From the IMG/VR virus record IMGVR_UViG_3300029700_000039, positions 1-15,642 of that record: a DNA stretch of 15,642 nucleotides; one strand, 5' to 3'. Source of the stretch: a virus. The notes beneath the pieces are model-generated. The model saw nothing but the letters and a program-made list of their open reading frames with translations. It ran no database searches and was not told the DNA's origin. This document shows, in pieces, positions 97 to 6,465 of this stretch (its first letter is position 1; each line of letters opens with the position of its first letter). Made by a program: the position numbers and the translations under genes.

Positions 97-864
97 ATGG
101 CCGGAGACTGGATCAAGGTGGAACACACGACACCGGACAAACCCGAAGTGGTGAAGCTGGCCGGCATCCTTGGAATTGATCAGGATGCCGTTGTCGGCAA
201 GCTGCTTCGCCTCTGGATTTGGGCTGATCAACAATCCGTTTCTGGTAACGCCATTACCGTTACAAATTCGTTTCTCGACCGTCTCGTATTCTGCCCCGGC
301 TTTGCTGCTGGGCTTGTCAAAGTCGGCTGGTTGAATGGACGCGAGGGCCTCCTTTCAATCCCCAATTTTGACCGCCACAACGGCCAATCCGCCAAGAATA
401 GGGCCAATACGAACCGCCGTGTTGCGAATAGCAGAAAAGCTCATCATGAGCGAGTTGCAAAAACATGTAACGAAAATGTAACGCTCGAACCGTTACAAAA
501 ACCGTTACCAGAGAAGAGAAGAGAAGATAATACTACTACTACAACTACAACCGGGCGCGAGGTTTGCCAATTTCCGAAGGACGTTTCCGAGGTTGACCGT
601 TTTATGGACGCCCAGGTTCTGCACCCGCTTGGAGACGAGCTGACCCGGTGCGCGGAACGGTTTTTCAACGAACAGTCCGCCGTTGGATGGCGAAACCGGC
701 ACGGCGTCCCCCTGGCGGACTGGCGGCCCATGGCTCGCCAATACGCTGCCACCTGGGCCCGGAACAATGCGGACGCGCCCGGTCTGAAACCCGCCAATAC
801 CGTGGGAACCAAGCCAAAATCAACGACTAAACCATCAAGAAGAGATGACCTCTGGAAAGATTGA
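97..864 (+). CDS. Phage replication initiator / replisome-organiser-like protein (lambda O-like architecture)
   Basis: 255-aa ORF with an ATG start. The N-terminal ~110 aa (WIKVEH...LRLWIWADQQ...VKVGWL...IPNFDRHNGQSAKNRA) resembles phage replisome-organiser/DnaD-like N domains. A low-complexity linker (EKRREDNTTTTTTTG) separates a Trp/Arg-rich C domain. A DnaC-like loader lies directly downstream and overlaps it. Family assignment is from memory, not searched. Confidence 0.6.
   Translation: MAGDWIKVEHTTPDKPEVVKLAGILGIDQDAVVGKLLRLWIWADQQSVSGNAITVTNSFLDRLVFCPGFAAGLVKVGWLNGREGLLSIPNFDRHNGQSAKNRANTNRRVANSRKAHHERVAKTCNENVTLEPLQKPLPEKRREDNTTTTTTTGREVCQFPKDVSEVDRFMDAQVLHPLGDELTRCAERFFNEQSAVGWRNRHGVPLADWRPMARQYAATWARNNADAPGLKPANTVGTKPKSTTKPSRRDDLWKD
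245..263. repeat. Inverted hexamer pair GTAACG-N7-CGTTAC inside the initiator gene
   Basis: GTAACG at 245-250 and CGTTAC at 258-263. The 7-nt spacing is the same as in the central pair at 478-496. Confidence 0.6.
465..552. repeat. Iteron-like cluster plus polypurine/TAC low-complexity tract (candidate ori)
   Basis: ATGTAACG at 465-472 and 476-483 (11-bp phasing). AACCGTTAC at 489-496 and 501-508 (12-bp phasing, opposite orientation). Then (GAGAA)x3-GATAA at 511-530 and a TAC/AAC repeat at 531-552. All of it lies in the codons for the inter-domain linker. Confidence 0.5.
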
Positions 865-1585
865 CGAACCCATTAAACCCCAGGGAGGACTGAAAGGAGT
901 TAATCTTGAAAGCCTCTTGGAATCCATCACCCTGCTTGCCGAGGACGACGGAAGAAGCATTGAAGAGCTGGAAGCGGAAGCGCTGGCTGCTGAAAAGCAG
1001 CGGGAAGAAGAACGCCGGGCGGCATACGAACGCCTGGGCCTGATTGATCGCGGCTTTCCCCGACGCGCTATTGATTGTCTCGACGAAGTAACTGGGGATC
1101 CATGGAAGAAAGCCCTCCGTGACTCCTACCGCCTCGTTTTAACCCCTGGGAGCATCATTGTGCTGAACGGTCGATACGGCACCGGGAAAACGGTATTGAG
1201 CACGTTTCTTGGACGCATCATGTACAGGCGAAAGAAGCGCGTACTCTATACCAAGGCCTATGATTACACGATGGCCTTGAGAGAGACGTTTAACGGCAAC
1301 GGCTTAGAATCCGATGTCATGAAGCGATACAAGGCGCCGTATCTTCTGGTGCTGGACGAGTATCACGAGGTCAAGGACACGGACTTTGCAGGCGCTGCGC
1401 TGGAACGGCTCATTGACTACCGGCACCAGAACGGCAAACCGACCATCATCATCGCCAACTACAGCCCCGCCGCCCTTGAAGATCGACTCGGGCCGGCCAT
1501 TGTTTCCCGCATCCACCTTTGCGGCACCATCATTACCTGCAATTGGACATCCTACCGCGAAATCAACTACCATCCCCGGGAATAG
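845..1585 (+). CDS. DnaC/IstB-like AAA+ helicase loader
   Basis: 246-aa ORF. Walker A is GRYGTGKT, Walker B is YLLVLDEY. The C-terminal IIIANY...VSRI region is typical of DnaC/IstB ATPases. It overlaps the initiator gene by 20 nt. Confidence 0.85.
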   Translation: MTSGKIDEPIKPQGGLKGVNLESLLESITLLAEDDGRSIEELEAEALAAEKQREEERRAAYERLGLIDRGFPRRAIDCLDEVTGDPWKKALRDSYRLVLTPGSIIVLNGRYGTGKTVLSTFLGRIMYRRKKRVLYTKAYDYTMALRETFNGNGLESDVMKRYKAPYLLVLDEYHEVKDTDFAGAALERLIDYRHQNGKPTIIIANYSPAALEDRLGPAIVSRIHLCGTIITCNWTSYREINYHPRE

Positions 1586-1619
1586 CCCTGGAATCTCGTA
1601 TACCCTGGAATCTCGTATA
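1586..1619. repeat. Perfect tandem duplication of 17 bp (CCCTGGAATCTCGTATA x2)
   Basis: Copies at 1586-1602 and 1603-1619 are identical. A degenerate third copy (CCCCGGGAATAG) lies just upstream over the stop codon. The repeat fills nearly the whole 37-nt gap between the convergent genes. Confidence 0.95.
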
Positions 1620-1622
1620 GGT

Positions 1623-1823
1623 CTATTCGTCCGGCAATCCGTGACGGGTGATTAGCTCCATCAACAGCTCCATGGAAGGACTCGTTTTTCTGGACCCGCC
1701 CAACCATTGCCACACCGCCATTTCCGTCACACGCAACATTTGCGCAGCCTTTTTGACCGCAGAAGTTTTGGATCGCAAATGGTATCTGGACTGCACCCAA
1801 TCAACAAATTCTTGAATAGTCAT
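1623..1823 (-). CDS. Small helix-turn-helix DNA-binding protein (Cro/YdaS/Aca-like)
   Basis: 66 aa. The segment KKAAQMLRVTEMAVWQWLGG fits an HTH (helix, turn, recognition helix with W). Its start ATG overlaps the stop of the upstream gene (ATGA at 1820-1823). Confidence 0.7.
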   Translation of the reverse strand: MTIQEFVDWVQSRYHLRSKTSAVKKAAQMLRVTEMAVWQWLGGSRKTSPSMELLMELITRHGLPDE

Positions 1824-2185
1824 AGCTGTGCCAGGGCGGCATGCACCGCCCTGGAATCATGGTTAGAGGGCTTCAACGCGGCGGAGTCCTGGAACCAGTT
1901 AAGGTTTTCCGGGTCTATCTCTTCACCTTTCACCTGCGTGAAAGTCATGAAGATTTCCACGGGGTTTCCGTTTTCGTCGTATCCGGGCGCGGAGTATTCC
2001 TCGGTGTATTCGTCCCCGTCTTCCGCGTCGTTGTAGCATCCGGCAAAAAGACGATTGGTTAATTCCATTTGGCGAGCAGCATAGTAGGTGTGTCCTTCAA
2101 AATCATAGCTACCGAATTCGCGTTCAAGCGCGCTCAGATTGATTTCTTCGCCGTCTTCCGTGGTGATGATTTTGTTGTCGTTCAT
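1820..2185 (-). CDS. Strongly acidic small protein of unknown function (121 aa from ATG 2185)
   Basis: The ORF track gives 1820-2269, but that start sits inside the palindrome/promoter. The internal ATG at 2185 (MNDNKIITTEDGEE...) is preferred. Hand count gives 26 Asp+Glu against 7 Lys+Arg. No recognisable catalytic motif. Confidence 0.65.
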   Translation of the reverse strand: MNDNKIITTEDGEEINLSALEREFGSYDFEGHTYYAARQMELTNRLFAGCYNDAEDGDEYTEEYSAPGYDENGNPVEIFMTFTQVKGEEIDPENLNWFQDSAALKPSNHDSRAVHAALAQL

Positions 2186-2255
2186 TGTCTTGTTCTTTCT
2201 GATTTGGTTTTGGATTGTGTCTTCGTTCGGTCCCTTACCTCCCGTCAACAAGGTC

Positions 2256-2284
2256 AATATACTAAACAATGTTTAGTATAGCAA
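2256..2284 (-). promoter_or_regulatory. Sigma70-like promoter with embedded 23-bp perfect palindrome (operator)
   Basis: On the minus strand: TTGCTA (2284-2279), 17 nt, then TATATT (2261-2256). The palindrome TATACTAAACA-A-TGTTTAGTATA occupies 2258-2280, covering the whole spacer and overlapping both promoter hexamers. Confidence 0.55.
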
Positions 2285-2469
2285 GAGAAAAAATGAAAAA
2301 AGAAGATTTTTTTCGTTGTCGTCCTCCATCAAAAAATGATAGGAGGAGGCGTTCTTTCTGAACGTTCAGCCCTTCGGGGCTGTGGATTAAAACGATCGCA
2401 AGATCATCCGGGCGGCAACGCCCATTTCCCTTAAAAAGGGGCGGTTTTTTTCGAAGCCGCCCCTTTTTT
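2270..2469 (+). ncRNA. Candidate structured small RNA (unknown class)
   Basis: Plus-strand hairpins: 2322-2347; 2367-2382 (CAGCCC-UUCG-GGGCUG); 2394-2405 (GAUC-GCAA-GAUC); 2410-2423 (GGGCG-GCAA-CGCCC). A terminator stem at 2438-2444/2457-2463 is followed by U6. A possible promoter is TTACCT (2235-2240), 17 nt, TATACT (2258-2263). The 5' end is a guess. Confidence 0.3.
2433..2469. terminator. Bidirectional rho-independent terminator
   Basis: AAAAA, then GGGGCGG (2438-2444), a 12-nt loop, CCGCCCC (2457-2463), then TTTTTT (2464-2469). It sits directly after the stop of the minus-strand zinc-ribbon gene (TAA 2470-2468), and a U-tract is available on both strands. Confidence 0.75.
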
Positions 2470-2983
2470 ATTCCGGGACGGATGGAGCCTCCAGGATCCG
2501 CCATCCGGCCCCCGTGCCTCTTCCCGATTTGCGGAAACGGGAGGCGGCGCAGGTCAAGAGTTTATAAATCTTTTTGCCTTCGGTTTCGCCAAAACGGGTG
2601 ACCATGTACAGCTTGAGATTGCGCGCCGTTACCTCTTCTCCTTCCGGCGACTCCACGCGCCATACTTTGGCGTGGCAATTCGTCTCAAATTTCCCGGTCC
2701 TCGGATGCTTGCGAGGTCCCCAAACGCCACGATGACGGCAGGCCTCCAAAAACGCTGCGGACGTGATTTTTCTCCCTCGCTGGGCGCGGTTGGCGCACTC
2801 CGCAGAGCAGTATTGACGGCGCCACAGTTTTTGGGCCCGGAATACGTTCCCGCACACAGGGCATGTGAGCGTTTCCCAGGCCTCCGCATAGTGAGCCTGG
2901 AGGCAGGCCCGGGAACAGTACACGCTGTCGCGCTTGCCCGCGCGGGGAGGAACATCCTTGCCGCAGATAGGACATCGTTTCAT
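2468..2983 (-). CDS. Double zinc-ribbon protein with a homing-endonuclease-like C-terminal DNA-binding module and no evident nuclease motif
   Basis: ATG at 2983 gives MKRCPICG.... The track's 2992 start is a GTG three codons upstream. Two CPxCG...YCSxxC modules are present. The C-terminal VWRVESPEGEEVTARNLKLYM...GWRI resembles the W-x-SP-x-G...NL...GW module of free-standing phage endonuclease-like proteins (from memory). Confidence 0.65.
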   Translation of the reverse strand: MKRCPICGKDVPPRAGKRDSVYCSRACLQAHYAEAWETLTCPVCGNVFRAQKLWRRQYCSAECANRAQRGRKITSAAFLEACRHRGVWGPRKHPRTGKFETNCHAKVWRVESPEGEEVTARNLKLYMVTRFGETEGKKIYKLLTCAASRFRKSGRGTGAGWRILEAPSVPE

Positions 2984-3035
2984 ACGCCCCACAGTTTGAA
3001 AAATGAGCGTTGCGAATCAAGAACAAACAACGCGC

Positions 3036-3065
3036 TTGAATTGGATATCCGTTGCCTCCTATAAT
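3036..3065 (+). promoter_or_regulatory. Near-consensus sigma70-type promoter upstream of the packaging/late operon
   Basis: TTGAAT (3036-3041), 18 nt, TATAAT (3060-3065). The 8-bp palindrome GGATATCC (3043-3050) lies in the spacer. Confidence 0.5.
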
Positions 3066-3133
3066 AGAGCCGCAGGAAAAATAAACCTATTACCAAAAGA
3101 AAACCGGGGCGGCCGAGCCTCTACACCGAAGAA

Positions 3134-3583
3134 TTGGCCGCCGAAATAGCCTCCCGCCTTGCCAACGGAGAAACCATGAAATCCATCTGCTCCGATGACC
3201 ACATGCCGGATGTTTTAACTGTCTGGAGATGGAGACACGAGCGGGAAGATTTTTGTAAACTCATTCAACGCGCGCGGGAAGCGCAGTCGGAAGCTATGAT
3301 TGACGCCTGTCAGGAGCTGGCCGACGAAGCCGCGAAAGTCGCCCTTGACCCGGAATGCGGCTCCGCCTCCGTCGCCGCGAAGAAGCTCGCCATTGAAACC
3401 CGGCTGAAAGTCGCCGCCCGCTTCGCGCCGGAGAAATTCGGAGACCGGGTCCGCCAGGATGTCGCCGGCGTTCCCGGCGCGCCGCTGGAACGGAAAATCA
3501 CGCTGGACCCTGAGCAGCTCGCCCAGCTGCAGGAAGACGAGAAAACCGCGCTGGAAACCATCGCCGGCAAACTCCATCCCTAA
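3134..3583 (+). CDS. terS: Terminase small subunit (HTH type); coding probably extends upstream to about 3089
   Basis: The first canonical start is TTG at 3134. The in-frame upstream translation ITKRKPGRPSLYTEEL continues the typical GRPS-YT-EL-A--I---LA-GE----IC N-terminus of this terS family. After that come W-W and a basic/acidic helical region. Confidence 0.8.
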   Translation: MAAEIASRLANGETMKSICSDDHMPDVLTVWRWRHEREDFCKLIQRAREAQSEAMIDACQELADEAAKVALDPECGSASVAAKKLAIETRLKVAARFAPEKFGDRVRQDVAGVPGAPLERKITLDPEQLAQLQEDEKTALETIAGKLHP

Positions 3584-3616: not shown

Positions 3617-4963
3617 TTGCGCCATATCCTCCGCCTTGACCCCTATCCATGGCAGGTGGAGTCCATCAAGGCGTTGTCCCTGGGTAAGCTGACCCTGGGA
3701 GGGAAAAGCGTGGCTCTGGTCGCTCCTAACGGATCCGGCAAGACAAGCAACTGCATCGCTCCCGCCATCCTGTACTTTCTCACCTGTTTTCCGCGGGGAC
3801 AGGTCCCCGTTACGTCCTCATCGTGGATGCAGGTGGAAAAGCAGCTCTTTCCCGCGCTCCGCCGCTACATGGACAATCCTTTCTTTTCCGGCTGGACCTT
3901 CAACAAGACGGAGATCCGCACGCCGGAGGGAGGCTTTGCCGTGGGTTTCTCCACCGACAACGCGGGACGTGCGGAAGGATGGCATCCAAAAATCTCGCCC
4001 GACGTGGATCCTGTCTTTTACGTCCTGGACGAGGCCAAAACCATTCCGGACTCCATCTTCACCGCCGTTTCCCGCTGCACGCTCTTTCACGCGTTCATCA
4101 CCTCGTCGCCGGGCGCCGATTCCGGCACCTTCTACGACTGCTTTCACAAAAATTCATCGCTCTACTACAAAATCCGCGTCAAATACGAGGATTGCCCGCA
4201 CATTGAAATCAACGACCCGGGCAAGGCCGAACGCCTGAAAAAAGAATATGGTGAGCAGTCCTCCTTCTACCGCTCGGCCATCCTTGGTGAATTCACCGAC
4301 CTTGACGGACAATCCGTCATTTCCCGCCGCGCTCTCATGGAGCTGGTCAACAACCCGCCTCCCTTCCTGGACACCGGAGAGACCTGCGGCGGCTTCGACT
4401 TTGCCGCGGGAGGCGATGAAAACGTCTTTGCGGCCGGGCAGGGCAACCGTTTTTTCATCGCCGACCACTGGTCCGACCCGGACACCGTAGGAGCGCGCGG
4501 ACGTTTCCGCCGGAAGGCCGCCGAACTCGGCATCTCTGCCGACCGCATCTTTGCCGACGGCGACGGCCTAGGGCTCCCCATCATTGATGACTTCCGCGCC
4601 GAGGGCTTTCCGGTGCACTCCTACCGCGGCGGGTTTCCGGCGGATGACACACAAGCCTTTGTCAATCTGCGAGCCCAGGCATGGCGGGCTCTCGCCCGCG
4701 CCATCGAAGAAAAAGAACTCATCCTCGACATTGACGAGGATACGATTGAGCAGCTGGTTGCTCCACGACTCCAAACCGACGCAATAGGCCGCGTCCGCAT
4801 TGAAAGCAAAGAAGATATGGCAAAGCGGGGCGTTCGTTCCCCAGACCGGGCCGACGCCCTTGTGATGGCCTGGCACGCGCGCCGGAACAGCGGACTGGCG
4901 CGGACGCTGGGAGCCTGGTACGCCCGTCCCGTGTCATCAAAACGCGCTTACGGGAGATATTAG
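3617..4963 (+). CDS. terL: Terminase large subunit
   Basis: 448 aa with a TTG start. Walker A is APNGSGKT, Walker B is VFYVLDEA. The C-terminal nuclease-domain signature is ...ESKEDMAKRGVRSPDRADALVMAW. Confidence 0.9.
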   Translation: MRHILRLDPYPWQVESIKALSLGKLTLGGKSVALVAPNGSGKTSNCIAPAILYFLTCFPRGQVPVTSSSWMQVEKQLFPALRRYMDNPFFSGWTFNKTEIRTPEGGFAVGFSTDNAGRAEGWHPKISPDVDPVFYVLDEAKTIPDSIFTAVSRCTLFHAFITSSPGADSGTFYDCFHKNSSLYYKIRVKYEDCPHIEINDPGKAERLKKEYGEQSSFYRSAILGEFTDLDGQSVISRRALMELVNNPPPFLDTGETCGGFDFAAGGDENVFAAGQGNRFFIADHWSDPDTVGARGRFRRKAAELGISADRIFADGDGLGLPIIDDFRAEGFPVHSYRGGFPADDTQAFVNLRAQAWRALARAIEEKELILDIDEDTIEQLVAPRLQTDAIGRVRIESKEDMAKRGVRSPDRADALVMAWHARRNSGLARTLGAWYARPVSSKRAYGRY

Positions 4964-5005: not shown

Positions 5006-5016
5006 GCAATCGCAGG

Positions 5017-6465
5017 GTGGTGAAACGGTATCACGCGGGGTTCCTGTCCCCGAATCGAAGGTCCAACTCCTTCCCCTGCAACCACCTTTTCTTTAGCCTC
5101 AGGTTTAACGCCGTCAAAAATATCCTCAACGCCCCGAAGCTGGTAGCCCAACAGGAGACCAGAATCAAGGAGCTTGAAACGGACCTGGCCCGGCGAGCGT
5201 TGACGGAACAGAGCCGGAAGCCTAACCAGCCTCAATGGTACGAATATTGGGACCCGTTACAGGGCGCCGACCTGCAAACCCTGATTGACGCCCGGAACGA
5301 AGCGCGGCGTGGAGCCTTTGCCCGCCAAATGCTCATTTGGGACGAGGTCATCTACTCGGACGGCTTGATGGGCATGCTCTATTCCCGGCTCATTGAAAGC
5401 GTCTCCATGCAGGGATGGAAGATTGACGCCGCGGACGACAGCCCGGAAGCCCAGCGTCAGCAGAACGCGCTGGAAGAATTCTATCACTCCGTCACCGGAC
5501 TTCAACAGGCCTTTGGGCAGTTGGCCTCCGCTATGTTTTACGGGTACGCCCACCTCCAATACATCGAAGATTCCTGGGGCCGCCGCTTTGAATTCATCCC
5601 GCAGCGATACTGGGTGCGGCCCGGAGAGCTGAACGAATGGCAGTTTAATCCCCAGTGCTACATCGGGGTCGACACGGGCGAGAGCGTAGAGGAAGAAACG
5701 CTCGTGGTCATGGAGCACCGGAACCCCATTCTTTTTCCGGCAACCCGCGCCTCTTTTGAGCGGAATCACGCCAAAGTTACGTGGGACAACCATATGGACC
5801 GCTACGGGAGCGCCCCGGTCATCATCACGGCGCCCAAGGACGCGAGCGCCGCCGTCATGGACGCGCTGGAACGGGCCTGTGAGGAACTCAAATCGGGAGC
5901 CTCCATTGTGCTTCCTCCCGGCTGCACCGCCGAACCGTTGAAAGCCTCCAACATCAACGAAAACTATTTCCTATCCCGAATCAACATGTCCGACAAGGAC
6001 CAGGTGCGGTTTGTAATGGCCGGCACTCTGACCGTCCTGAATGAATCAGGATCCGGCACGCTGGCCGGGGGAGCGCACACGGATAGCTGGAATTCGGTCG
6101 TCTCCGCGGTCTGTTCCAAGGTCGCCGAAGCTTTTAACGCCGCCATCAGCCCGCTTGTCCTGGGAGACGGCGAACCGCTGGCCCGCCTCCACATCACTTT
6201 TGACACCGTCCAGACCCCGCTGCAGAAAGCCGAGGAAATCGCCGCGCTTGCCGACGGAGGCGTCCGCCCCGAGAAGACCGAGATTGAAGAAAAGATCGGC
6301 ATGTCGATCGAGGACACGCAGGACCCCGTTCCGGTGACGGCGGCGGCCAACAGGGAACCGGAAAAAGCACTCATTCCGCCCGATGCTTATGAACAGCTTC
6401 AGCAAATGATTTACGCCGGACTCATGAAAGGATTTACCGATGATCAGCACGAAACAAATCAATGA
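5017..6465 (+). CDS. Portal protein, Mu gp29 / DUF935-like
   Basis: 482 aa with a GTG start (an alternative in-frame TTG is at 5200). It sits directly after terL. The region ARRGAFARQMLIWDEVIYSDGLMGMLYSRLIESVSMQGWKI matches my memory of the DUF935 N-terminal core. The start is uncertain. Confidence 0.75.
   Translation: MVKRYHAGFLSPNRRSNSFPCNHLFFSLRFNAVKNILNAPKLVAQQETRIKELETDLARRALTEQSRKPNQPQWYEYWDPLQGADLQTLIDARNEARRGAFARQMLIWDEVIYSDGLMGMLYSRLIESVSMQGWKIDAADDSPEAQRQQNALEEFYHSVTGLQQAFGQLASAMFYGYAHLQYIEDSWGRRFEFIPQRYWVRPGELNEWQFNPQCYIGVDTGESVEEETLVVMEHRNPILFPATRASFERNHAKVTWDNHMDRYGSAPVIITAPKDASAAVMDALERACEELKSGASIVLPPGCTAEPLKASNINENYFLSRINMSDKDQVRFVMAGTLTVLNESGSGTLAGGAHTDSWNSVVSAVCSKVAEAFNAAISPLVLGDGEPLARLHITFDTVQTPLQKAEEIAALADGGVRPEKTEIEEKIGMSIEDTQDPVPVTAAANREPEKALIPPDAYEQLQQMIYAGLMKGFTDDQHETNQ

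Follow-up and report, generated by a model that had tools for sequence, protein, structure and literature searches.

IMG/VR virus record IMGVR_UViG_3300029700_000039 (15,642 nt; this whole stretch is referred to as the window) contains a 282 nt-long non-coding gap (positions 2186-2467) between the ATG of an acidic-protein gene (2185) and the stop codon of a zinc-ribbon gene (2468). On its plus strand, the gap carries a solitary repeat-like unit (psiR; 2364-2393) of the kind found in type I-C CRISPR arrays, and we favor the reading that the gap encodes an RNA anti-CRISPR, of the Racr or Cracr kind, that hijacks the type I-C Cas proteins of the host (probability roughly 0.6). The unit reads GTTCAGCCC-TTCG-GGGCTG followed by the handle TGGATTAAAAC, i.e. 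GTT, the first stem arm CAGCCC (2367-2372), the loop TTCG (2373-2376), the second stem arm GGGCTG (2377-2382) and the 11-nt handle (2383-2393). The sequence GTTCAGCCCTTCGGGGCTGTGGATTAAAAC displays the type I-C layout, with a GTC-like start, a G+C stem and a 3′ handle of the GTGGATTGAAAC/T type.

The unit was assigned to the type I-C repeat class with a covariance model (R1), which was built from 15 repeats of real I-C arrays (alignment A2) and scores sequence and structure jointly. Its best match in the window lay at 2365-2393 on the plus strand (19 bits, rough E of 1e-3) and the next match had an E of 0.057, leaving one match with E <0.05, i.e. a solitary unit; the R1 scan of the window found no second repeat after the spacer-like part, so that the unit does not count as a mini-array. 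No cas genes lie nearby, and the neighboring genes belong to phage replication, an HNH-like protein and terminase. The same layout and handle occur in I-C-typed repeats in the supplement of the Racr paper (PMC10651486) and in two gut repeats in PMC8530359. Scanning metagenomes for tandem copies of CTGTGGATTNAAAY yielded 57 loci of real arrays with up to 56 copies, including repeats nearly identical to the unit (e.g. GTCAGCCTCTGCGATGGGGCTGTGGATTGAAAT, with a period of 66-68). In L107 (L-numbers label the loci compared, L001 being Akkermansia phage DTMo-2021a and L104-L160 the metagenome arrays), a complete cas3-cas5c-cas8c-cas7-cas4-cas1c-cas2 operon, with all members above the NCBIfam cut-offs, lies upstream of the array, and all its cas genes, cas7/csd2 among them, are co-directional with 56 repeats ending in CTGTGGATTGAAAT. 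This fixes both the subtype, I-C, and the transcribed orientation, and it is in the transcribed orientation of real arrays that the unit reads on the plus strand. The array repeats (e.g. GTCGCACCCTTCACGGGTGCGTGGATTGAAAC; L104-L160) share with the unit a GT(T)C start, a G+C stem-loop and the 11-nt handle UGGAUU(A/G)AAAC, whereas the window's unit stands alone and has an A in the handle where most repeats have a G. The handle of the related locus L043 carries the canonical G (UGGAUU(G/A)AAAC).

With both flanking proteins as queries, we retrieved more than 20 IMG/VR contigs with the same gene order. Carriers of the unit, which like the window are viruses or mobile elements, number more than 20 among the IMG/VR contigs and include a prophage (L073) on a 283-kb contig from a metagenome-assembled genome (MAG) of Akkermansia muciniphila. 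A genome scan with GGGGCTGTGGATTNAAAC gave 30 matches, among which L073 alone was homologous; the other matches inspected lacked the hairpin or had unrelated gene surroundings, as chance predicts. Across 15 distinct gap versions from related sequences (alignment A1), the unit varied only at the second base of the loop and at one base of the handle (A or G). Compared with L011, L043 and L073, 39 of the 43 positions in 2364-2406 were kept, as against 73% of nucleotides in the HNH-like gene, 75% in the acidic-protein gene and 58-68% in the adjoining helix-turn-helix (HTH) gene, making the unit and the 13 nt behind it the best-conserved stretch of the gene island. These nearly invariant 13 nt (GATCGCAAGATCA; 2394-2406, plus strand) directly follow the handle and begin the spacer-like part (psiS); positions 5 and 6 alone vary (GC, AC or GT), with the neighboring proteins at 56-75% identity. 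The segment can form a weak hairpin, GAUC-GCAA-GAUC (2394-2405), and since its stem never varies, it provides no structural evidence in either direction. Next come a conserved GNRA-capped hairpin, GGGCG-GCAA-CGCCC (2410-2423, plus strand), and a bidirectional intrinsic terminator (2433-2469) made up of an A run, GGGGCGG...CCGCCCC and a T run. In all 15 sequences, pairing is intact in the repeat hairpin and in the GAUC and GGGCG stems. Of the five pairs in the hairpin at 2410-2423, two show compensatory G-C to A-U replacement and a third is replaced by G.U, under a loop that reads GCAA or GAAA in every sequence.

Cleavage by Cas5c/Cas5d leaves an 11-nt handle. During infection or from the prophage, we propose, a plus-strand RNA of ~190-210 nt with a type I-C repeat mimic at its core would be transcribed from a promoter overlapping a palindromic operator and would end at the terminator at 2433-2469. 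Host Cas5c, the type I-C nuclease of precursor CRISPR RNA (pre-crRNA), would bind the hairpin at 2367-2382 together with the handle and cut at the 3′ base of the stem, and the crRNA-like product would comprise UGGAUUAAAAC as its 11-nt handle, followed by the conserved 13-16 nt and by the GNRA and terminator hairpins. Cas5c, Cas7 and Cas8c would assemble on this product rather than on real crRNAs, in the kind of competition shown for Racrs, leaving fewer working surveillance complexes to act against the phage (decoy and sequestration, the Racr type), and the conserved short segment may additionally guide the hijacked complex to a host promoter (the Cracr type). Cas5 carries out the processing of crRNAs in type I-C systems (PMC10651486). 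In the predicted fold of the processed RNA, GGAU of the handle pairs with AUCC at 2406-2409; we rejected this pairing as a conserved feature, as it is not kept in other lineages.

The strongest alternative refines the proposed RNA anti-CRISPR rather than opposing it: the main job of the same RNA might be that of a Cracr-type regulatory guide, which directs the hijacked I-C complex to a promoter, either that of the host cas operon or that of a CRISPR-guarding toxin, and silences it through partial pairing of the conserved 13-16 nt. We regard this as a serious possibility, albeit at well below even odds. The order psiR, short psiS and terminator is that of CreR and CracrVA1, and Cracrs have short spacers; moreover, the 13 nt are held by sequence without covariation, while the next hairpin is held by structure. 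A target would read 5′-TTC-GATCNNAAGATCA, with at least 9 matches proximal to the protospacer-adjacent motif (PAM), near cas or toxin promoters; however, neither the phage loci nor 333 kb of type I-C loci yielded a PAM-flanked match to any psiS. Lineages differ at position 5 of the segment, which belongs to the seed, and the variable positions 5-6 would also suit the loop of the GAUC hairpin.

Loci with several units speak in favor of an RNA anti-CRISPR and, through their spacer-like parts, of such guidance. R1 found one to three units in related loci. L096 (1135-1363) and L100 (2874-3102, minus strand) each carry three, at the position that the unit has in the window and preceded by the shared conserved upstream block, L114 (7247-7400, minus strand) has three between a consensus promoter, TTGACT-17-TATACT, and a terminator, and L097 has two. 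The units of the three-unit arrays are type I-C repeat-like, and the spacer-like parts of multi-unit relatives are short and share their first bases (TAAGGCAATA, TAAGATAGTA and TAAGGCAGTA in L114). Between L096 and L100, the first spacer-like part differs at positions 6 and 12. Positions 6 and 12 are not read in type I pairing, and, taken with the shared first bases, this is guide-like behavior. Among other IMG/VR phages we also observed hybrid arrays, in which one or two I-C-like units are followed directly by a Cas12a (type V-A)-like unit, AATTTCTACTATYGTAGAT, a short segment and a terminator (L097 7337-7440, L199 1938-2040 and L210 2617-2730; also L186, L194 and L202). Such a hybrid array would give one RNA directed against two types of CRISPR.

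Both described kinds of RNA anti-CRISPR offer points of comparison. Like the Racrs (RacrIC1 etc.; Camara-Wilpert et al. 2023, PMC10651486), the window has a lone repeat-like hairpin with handle, in a phage or prophage without cas genes and beside small anti-defense-looking genes, and the subtype is I-C, as for RacrIC1. RacrIC1, which adjoins AcrIC5 (PMC10651486), differs in that it is transcribed together with acrIC5, at a distance of 11 nt downstream, whereas the window's unit is divergent from its neighbor and has only the operator region in common with it. Unlike the Racrs, the unit is followed by a conserved tail, made up of the 13 nt and the covarying hairpin, and its host belongs to the Verrucomicrobiota; and while near-identity to the host repeat was a selection criterion for Racrs, the unit agrees with one published Akkermansia repeat at 18 of 30 positions. 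The string GGGGCTGTGGATT and the contig numbers searched do not occur in the accessible part of the supplementary tables of PMC10651486. With Cracr, CreR and CreA RNAs (Liu et al., bioRxiv 10.1101/2024.10.29.618823), the gap shares the arrangement of psiR (2364-2393), a short psiS (2394-2406/2409) and a rho-independent terminator (2433-2469), here with a hairpin in between, as well as the two- to three-unit arrays in relatives and the co-encoded anti-defense proteins. Cracrs are defined by at least 9 PAM-proximal matches to the host cas or creT promoter, whereas the window's unit is known by its layout. The single-repeat form (one psiR, psiS and terminator, as in CracrVA1 and CreR; bioRxiv 10.1101/2024.10.29.618823) has been described for type V-A (CracrVA1), while the type I examples have flanking repeats; and the Cracr survey covered Pseudomonadota, Bacillota and Actinomycetota, not Verrucomicrobiota.

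Against this background, a bolder and still more tentative proposal is that the gap represents a compact new type of type I RNA anti-CRISPR, in which one repeat mimic is combined with a fixed 13-16-nt guide and a GNRA hairpin/terminator cap takes the place of the 3′ repeat. A shortened I-C complex might then silence a host defense promoter, and the RNA would sit back to back with a protein anti-defense operon, the two served by one co-evolving operator-repressor pair. It would be the first such system known for the Verrucomicrobiota and for phages that infect a next-generation probiotic, and its relatives would be modular, including the mixed I-C and V-A arrays in other gut phages. A. muciniphila is a probiotic under development whose phages are little studied. 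If the favored reading is true, a repeat mimic coupled to a swappable anti-defense operon explains how heavily targeted phages persist, both as prophage and as free phage, and RNA anti-CRISPRs are extended to a new phylum. The small RNA (~87 nt after the proposed processing) would be suited to studying how type I-C Cas5c and Cas7 are hijacked.

Several observations weigh against an RNA anti-CRISPR. The R1 score is modest at 19 bits, and the stem and loop of the unit (6 bp and 4 nt) are shorter than in real repeats (30 nt in total vs 32-33). Most of the repeats used to build R1 had been fetched with a handle pattern copied from the unit, making the handle's share of the score partly circular; the hairpin and 5′ parts of the model and three literature repeats are independent of this pattern. 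The promoter scan lists no plus-strand site at the gap: a weak candidate, TTACCT-17-TATACT (2235-2263, plus strand), was picked out by eye, is uncertain and falls below the scan threshold. The closest repeats come from arrays on low-G+C contigs (41-51%) whose 579 spacers include no match to the phage, and we therefore do not count these arrays as the host's. The one published Akkermansia I-C repeat found, GTCGCTCTCCGCAAGGAGAGCGTGGATAGAAAT, matches the unit at just 18 of 30 positions and differs from it at 3 of the 11 handle bases. As regards the divergent operon, the acidic protein resembles no known anti-CRISPR protein (Acr) in Pfam, PHROG or the Protein Data Bank (PDB), no dedicated anti-CRISPR library having been used, and the matches of the HTH protein are weak and generic, with no demonstrable homology to Aca proteins.

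As to the host itself, the setting suits an RNA anti-CRISPR: the genus Akkermansia harbors type I-C and II-C systems (PMC9241678), and DTMo-2021a-like phages are targeted by spacers in ~85% of the genomes of two Akkermansia species (PMC13596890), a group that ranks with the phages most often hit by Akkermansia spacers. The units of relatives agree with GTCGCTCTCCGCAAGGAGAGCGTGGATAGAAAT at up to 23 of 29 positions. No Akkermansia repeat was found in the literature supplements searched. Searching viral contigs with the published repeat uncovered one array end (L161, 1-430), the trailer end of an array with GTCGCTCTCCGCAAGGAGAGCGTGGATAGAAAT, which is separated by ~100 nt from an integrase gene and the junction of a prophage. 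Since the L161 contig has only 42% G+C, this repeat type seems to occur outside Akkermansia too; homologs of the L161 integrase, when looked up, led to no array.

That the gap contains no RNA gene at all appears improbable. Its hairpins would then be the terminator or 3′ untranslated region (UTR) of the zinc-ribbon gene plus control DNA of the acidic operon, and the likeness to a repeat a relic or chance. All hairpins reported in the first-pass annotation, which had proposed a small RNA (sRNA) of no recognized family in this gap, were present and formed part of the minimum-free-energy fold of 2286-2469 on the plus strand. This fold (−81.1 kcal/mol) was far more stable than those of shuffled sequences (−49.1 ± 4.7; z = −6.9), none of 200 shuffles equaling it. 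The minus strand, however, folds nearly as well (z = −6.2), so that folding energy alone cannot pick the strand; the terminator appears in the folds of both strands and also ends the minus-strand zinc-ribbon gene; and the candidate plus-strand promoter falls short of the scan threshold. These points suit a gap without an RNA gene, but the best-conserved part of the island is the unit, ~40 nt past the terminator as read from the minus strand, and the tetraloops and G.U pairs fit the plus strand alone. Specifically, the repeat hairpin maintains a UNCG loop on the plus strand (UUCG, UCCG or UGCG), and G.U pairs that would be A.C on the other strand occur in the hairpin at 2410-2423 in L043, in one unit of L096 and in the second-lineage terminator, whose stem, GGGCGGTTC-TTCG-GGGCTGCCC, has three of them and is possible on the plus strand only. 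Units of this kind recur in one to three copies in other phages with clear promoters and terminators, and L077 keeps the unit together with the HTH gene but has no zinc-ribbon gene. Together with the GNRA loops and the array orientation, this upholds the previously noted bias toward the plus strand. In L077 (~3040-3086), the terminator loop is inverted relative to the window (GGGGCGG-CTTCGAAAAAA-CCGCCCC vs GGGGCGG-TTTTTTTCGAAG-CCGCCCC) and looks as if flipped between the inverted stem arms.

Rather than interfering with CRISPR immunity, the unit could be a working one-spacer CRISPR element, with which host Cas proteins cleave a competing phage, a plasmid or a host gene. Mini-arrays have been reported from phages (cited in PMC10651486), and relatives of the window carry two or three units. 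We nevertheless consider this very unlikely: the window has a single repeat and none after the spacer-like part, which itself is conserved and highly structured rather than variable and matches nothing in the loci searched.

Equally unlikely is the non-CRISPR function that the first-pass annotation had in mind, i.e. a trans-acting base-pairing sRNA or a leader-peptide attenuator. Stable stacked hairpins and a terminator would suit it, as would a Shine-Dalgarno (SD)-like/anti-SD pair in which UCCUCC (2322-2327) pairs with GGAGGA (2342-2347). Yet these latter elements reside in the A/U-rich, poorly conserved leader of the RNA (2281-2363, plus strand), which also contains a hairpin CGTTC-TTTCT-GAACG and which accumulates indels and substitutions throughout, GCAAGAGAAAAAATGAAAAAAG and GTTCTTTCT being the only parts kept. 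The second lineage lacks the SD/anti-SD hairpin (2322-2347), which L006 and L077 retain only in degraded form. Likewise, for the 22-codon open reading frame (ORF) of the leader (ATG at 2293 to TGA at 2361, plus strand), the start codon is missing in L006 and L077 and the frame is shifted in L007, L009 and L017, which led us to reject the leader-peptide or attenuator interpretation. By contrast, the conserved part coincides exactly with the repeat-like unit. The gap had been described as non-coding and filled with stacked hairpins and a terminator, which coordinates and fold confirm, and the conserved elements do behave like a plus-strand RNA that ends at the terminator and diverges from the acidic-protein operon. 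What does not stand is the label of an unfamiliar family, since mimics of CRISPR repeats, like the type I-C one in the conserved core, have been described before as solitary repeat units, Racrs and Cracrs. Rfam gave no family: at gathering scores the window returned tRNA only, with all matches in 2150-2550 far below the thresholds, and at E ≤10 there was sub-threshold noise (GibS, Xoo2 and similar), all of it driven by the terminator. Covariation, in turn, is present in the hairpin at 2410-2423 as two compensatory pairs. As Rfam leaves such elements unflagged, hairpin-rich intergenic sRNA candidates of phages are worth checking against CRISPR repeats. Finally, the idea, raised for solitary repeat units (PMC10651486), that the unit is an attachment site for phage integration into a host CRISPR array can be dismissed, as in L073 the unit lies inside the prophage between the same genes as in the phage and not at the junction.

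Upstream of the proposed RNA, and divergent from it, a minus-strand operon encodes an acidic orphan protein (121 aa, pI 4.1; 1820-2185) and a 66-aa HTH protein (1623-1823), a candidate Aca-like repressor. A sigma-70-like promoter for this operon was identified by the promoter scan at 2256-2284 on the minus strand (−35 TTGCTA, 17 nt, −10 TATATT), and its spacer is filled by a perfect operator-like palindrome read from the sequence, TATACTAAAC-AAT-GTTTAGTATA (2258-2280). Other lineages, including L011, L096 and L100, have other palindromes at the same position (GTTACTATAAA/TTTATAGTAAC, GAATAC/GTATTC or GTGCAC/GTACAC), and the change of palindrome tracks the divergence of the HTH protein (94-100%, 55-66% and 37% identity); the two look like a co-evolving operator-repressor pair. 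The promoter layout TTGCnn-17-TAnnTT, as judged by eye, is kept in other lineages. For the candidate plus-strand promoter, the −10 TATACT is the same as in the L114 promoter, and its spacing is not conserved in other lineages. A block reading GGTCCCTTACCTCCCGTCAACAAGGTCAAT (2226-2257) hardly varies in any lineage, not even in the distant L096 and L100, and is better kept than the flanking genes; it could be the 5′ UTR of the acidic operon or part of the plus-strand promoter.

The arrangement is that of acr-aca operons: one or more small, fast-evolving and swappable protein genes precede a small HTH gene, and the promoter holds an inverted repeat between its −35 and −10 boxes. It differs from them in that neither window protein can be demonstrated to belong to a known Acr or Aca family, the assignment being made by context. 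Residues 23-51 of the HTH protein gave concordant matches to P22 Cro, YdaS, HTH_23, phrog_35 (transcriptional repressor) and PDB entry 2a6c, and wherever a related locus extends far enough, the HTH gene is found next to the repeat unit. The family of the acidic protein comprises only 42 protein clusters, which are closely related and unannotated. Neither Pfam nor PHROG assigns the protein to a family, its sequence matches no PDB entry, and its AlphaFold model (pLDDT 70) found no fold match in the PDB at E ≤0.001. By its genomic context we consider it an anti-CRISPR protein candidate. Cargo genes vary behind the same promoter and HTH gene: in L077 (1877-2868 and 3210-4103), which retains the HTH gene, a pentapeptide-repeat protein and a 102-aa ORF take the place of the acidic gene, and in L004 (2521-3324) and L007 (2704-3309) other domains are fused to the acidic domain. 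The swapped genes are candidate anti-defense genes, making the orphan acidic family and the pentapeptide-repeat protein candidates for anti-CRISPR or other anti-defense functions, and the operon as a whole is probably the protein anti-defense partner of the RNA under control of the HTH repressor. L077 encodes, in addition, a second protein in which acidic and HTH parts are fused. One base near 1881/1882 that is present in L003-L009 is missing from the window. The deletion shifts the last codons of the acidic protein, giving 121 aa instead of the family's usual 107 and replacing the ending ...DRVEAL, and it is the reason why the HTH ATG overlaps the stop codon of the acidic gene (ATGA).

Overall, the window represents an Akkermansia phage, being 86% identical to Akkermansia phage DTMo-2021a across 67% of its length. 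Positions 102-3069 constitute a module that is absent from this phage, where unrelated DNA is found instead (L001 3103-4825), and the repeat-like unit was detected neither in the examined stretch of DTMo-2021a (R1) nor in phage Chantilly; a distant-mode search of the phage GenBank collection with the gap gave no match. The replaced segment spans the genes from the replication initiator (97-864, plus strand) through the zinc-ribbon gene, and this site between the replication and packaging modules is a hot spot of mosaicism. A DnaC-like loader gene (845-1585, plus strand) follows the initiator. The zinc-ribbon/HNH-like protein (2468-2992, minus strand) has several CxxC motifs and matches the HNH-endonuclease family phrog_1271 (E = 3e-11); its gene is positioned just upstream of the genes for the small (3134-3583, plus strand) and large (3617-4963, plus strand) terminase. 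A tRNA-Arg(CCT) gene (5011-5084, plus strand) lies immediately 3′ of the large terminase gene.

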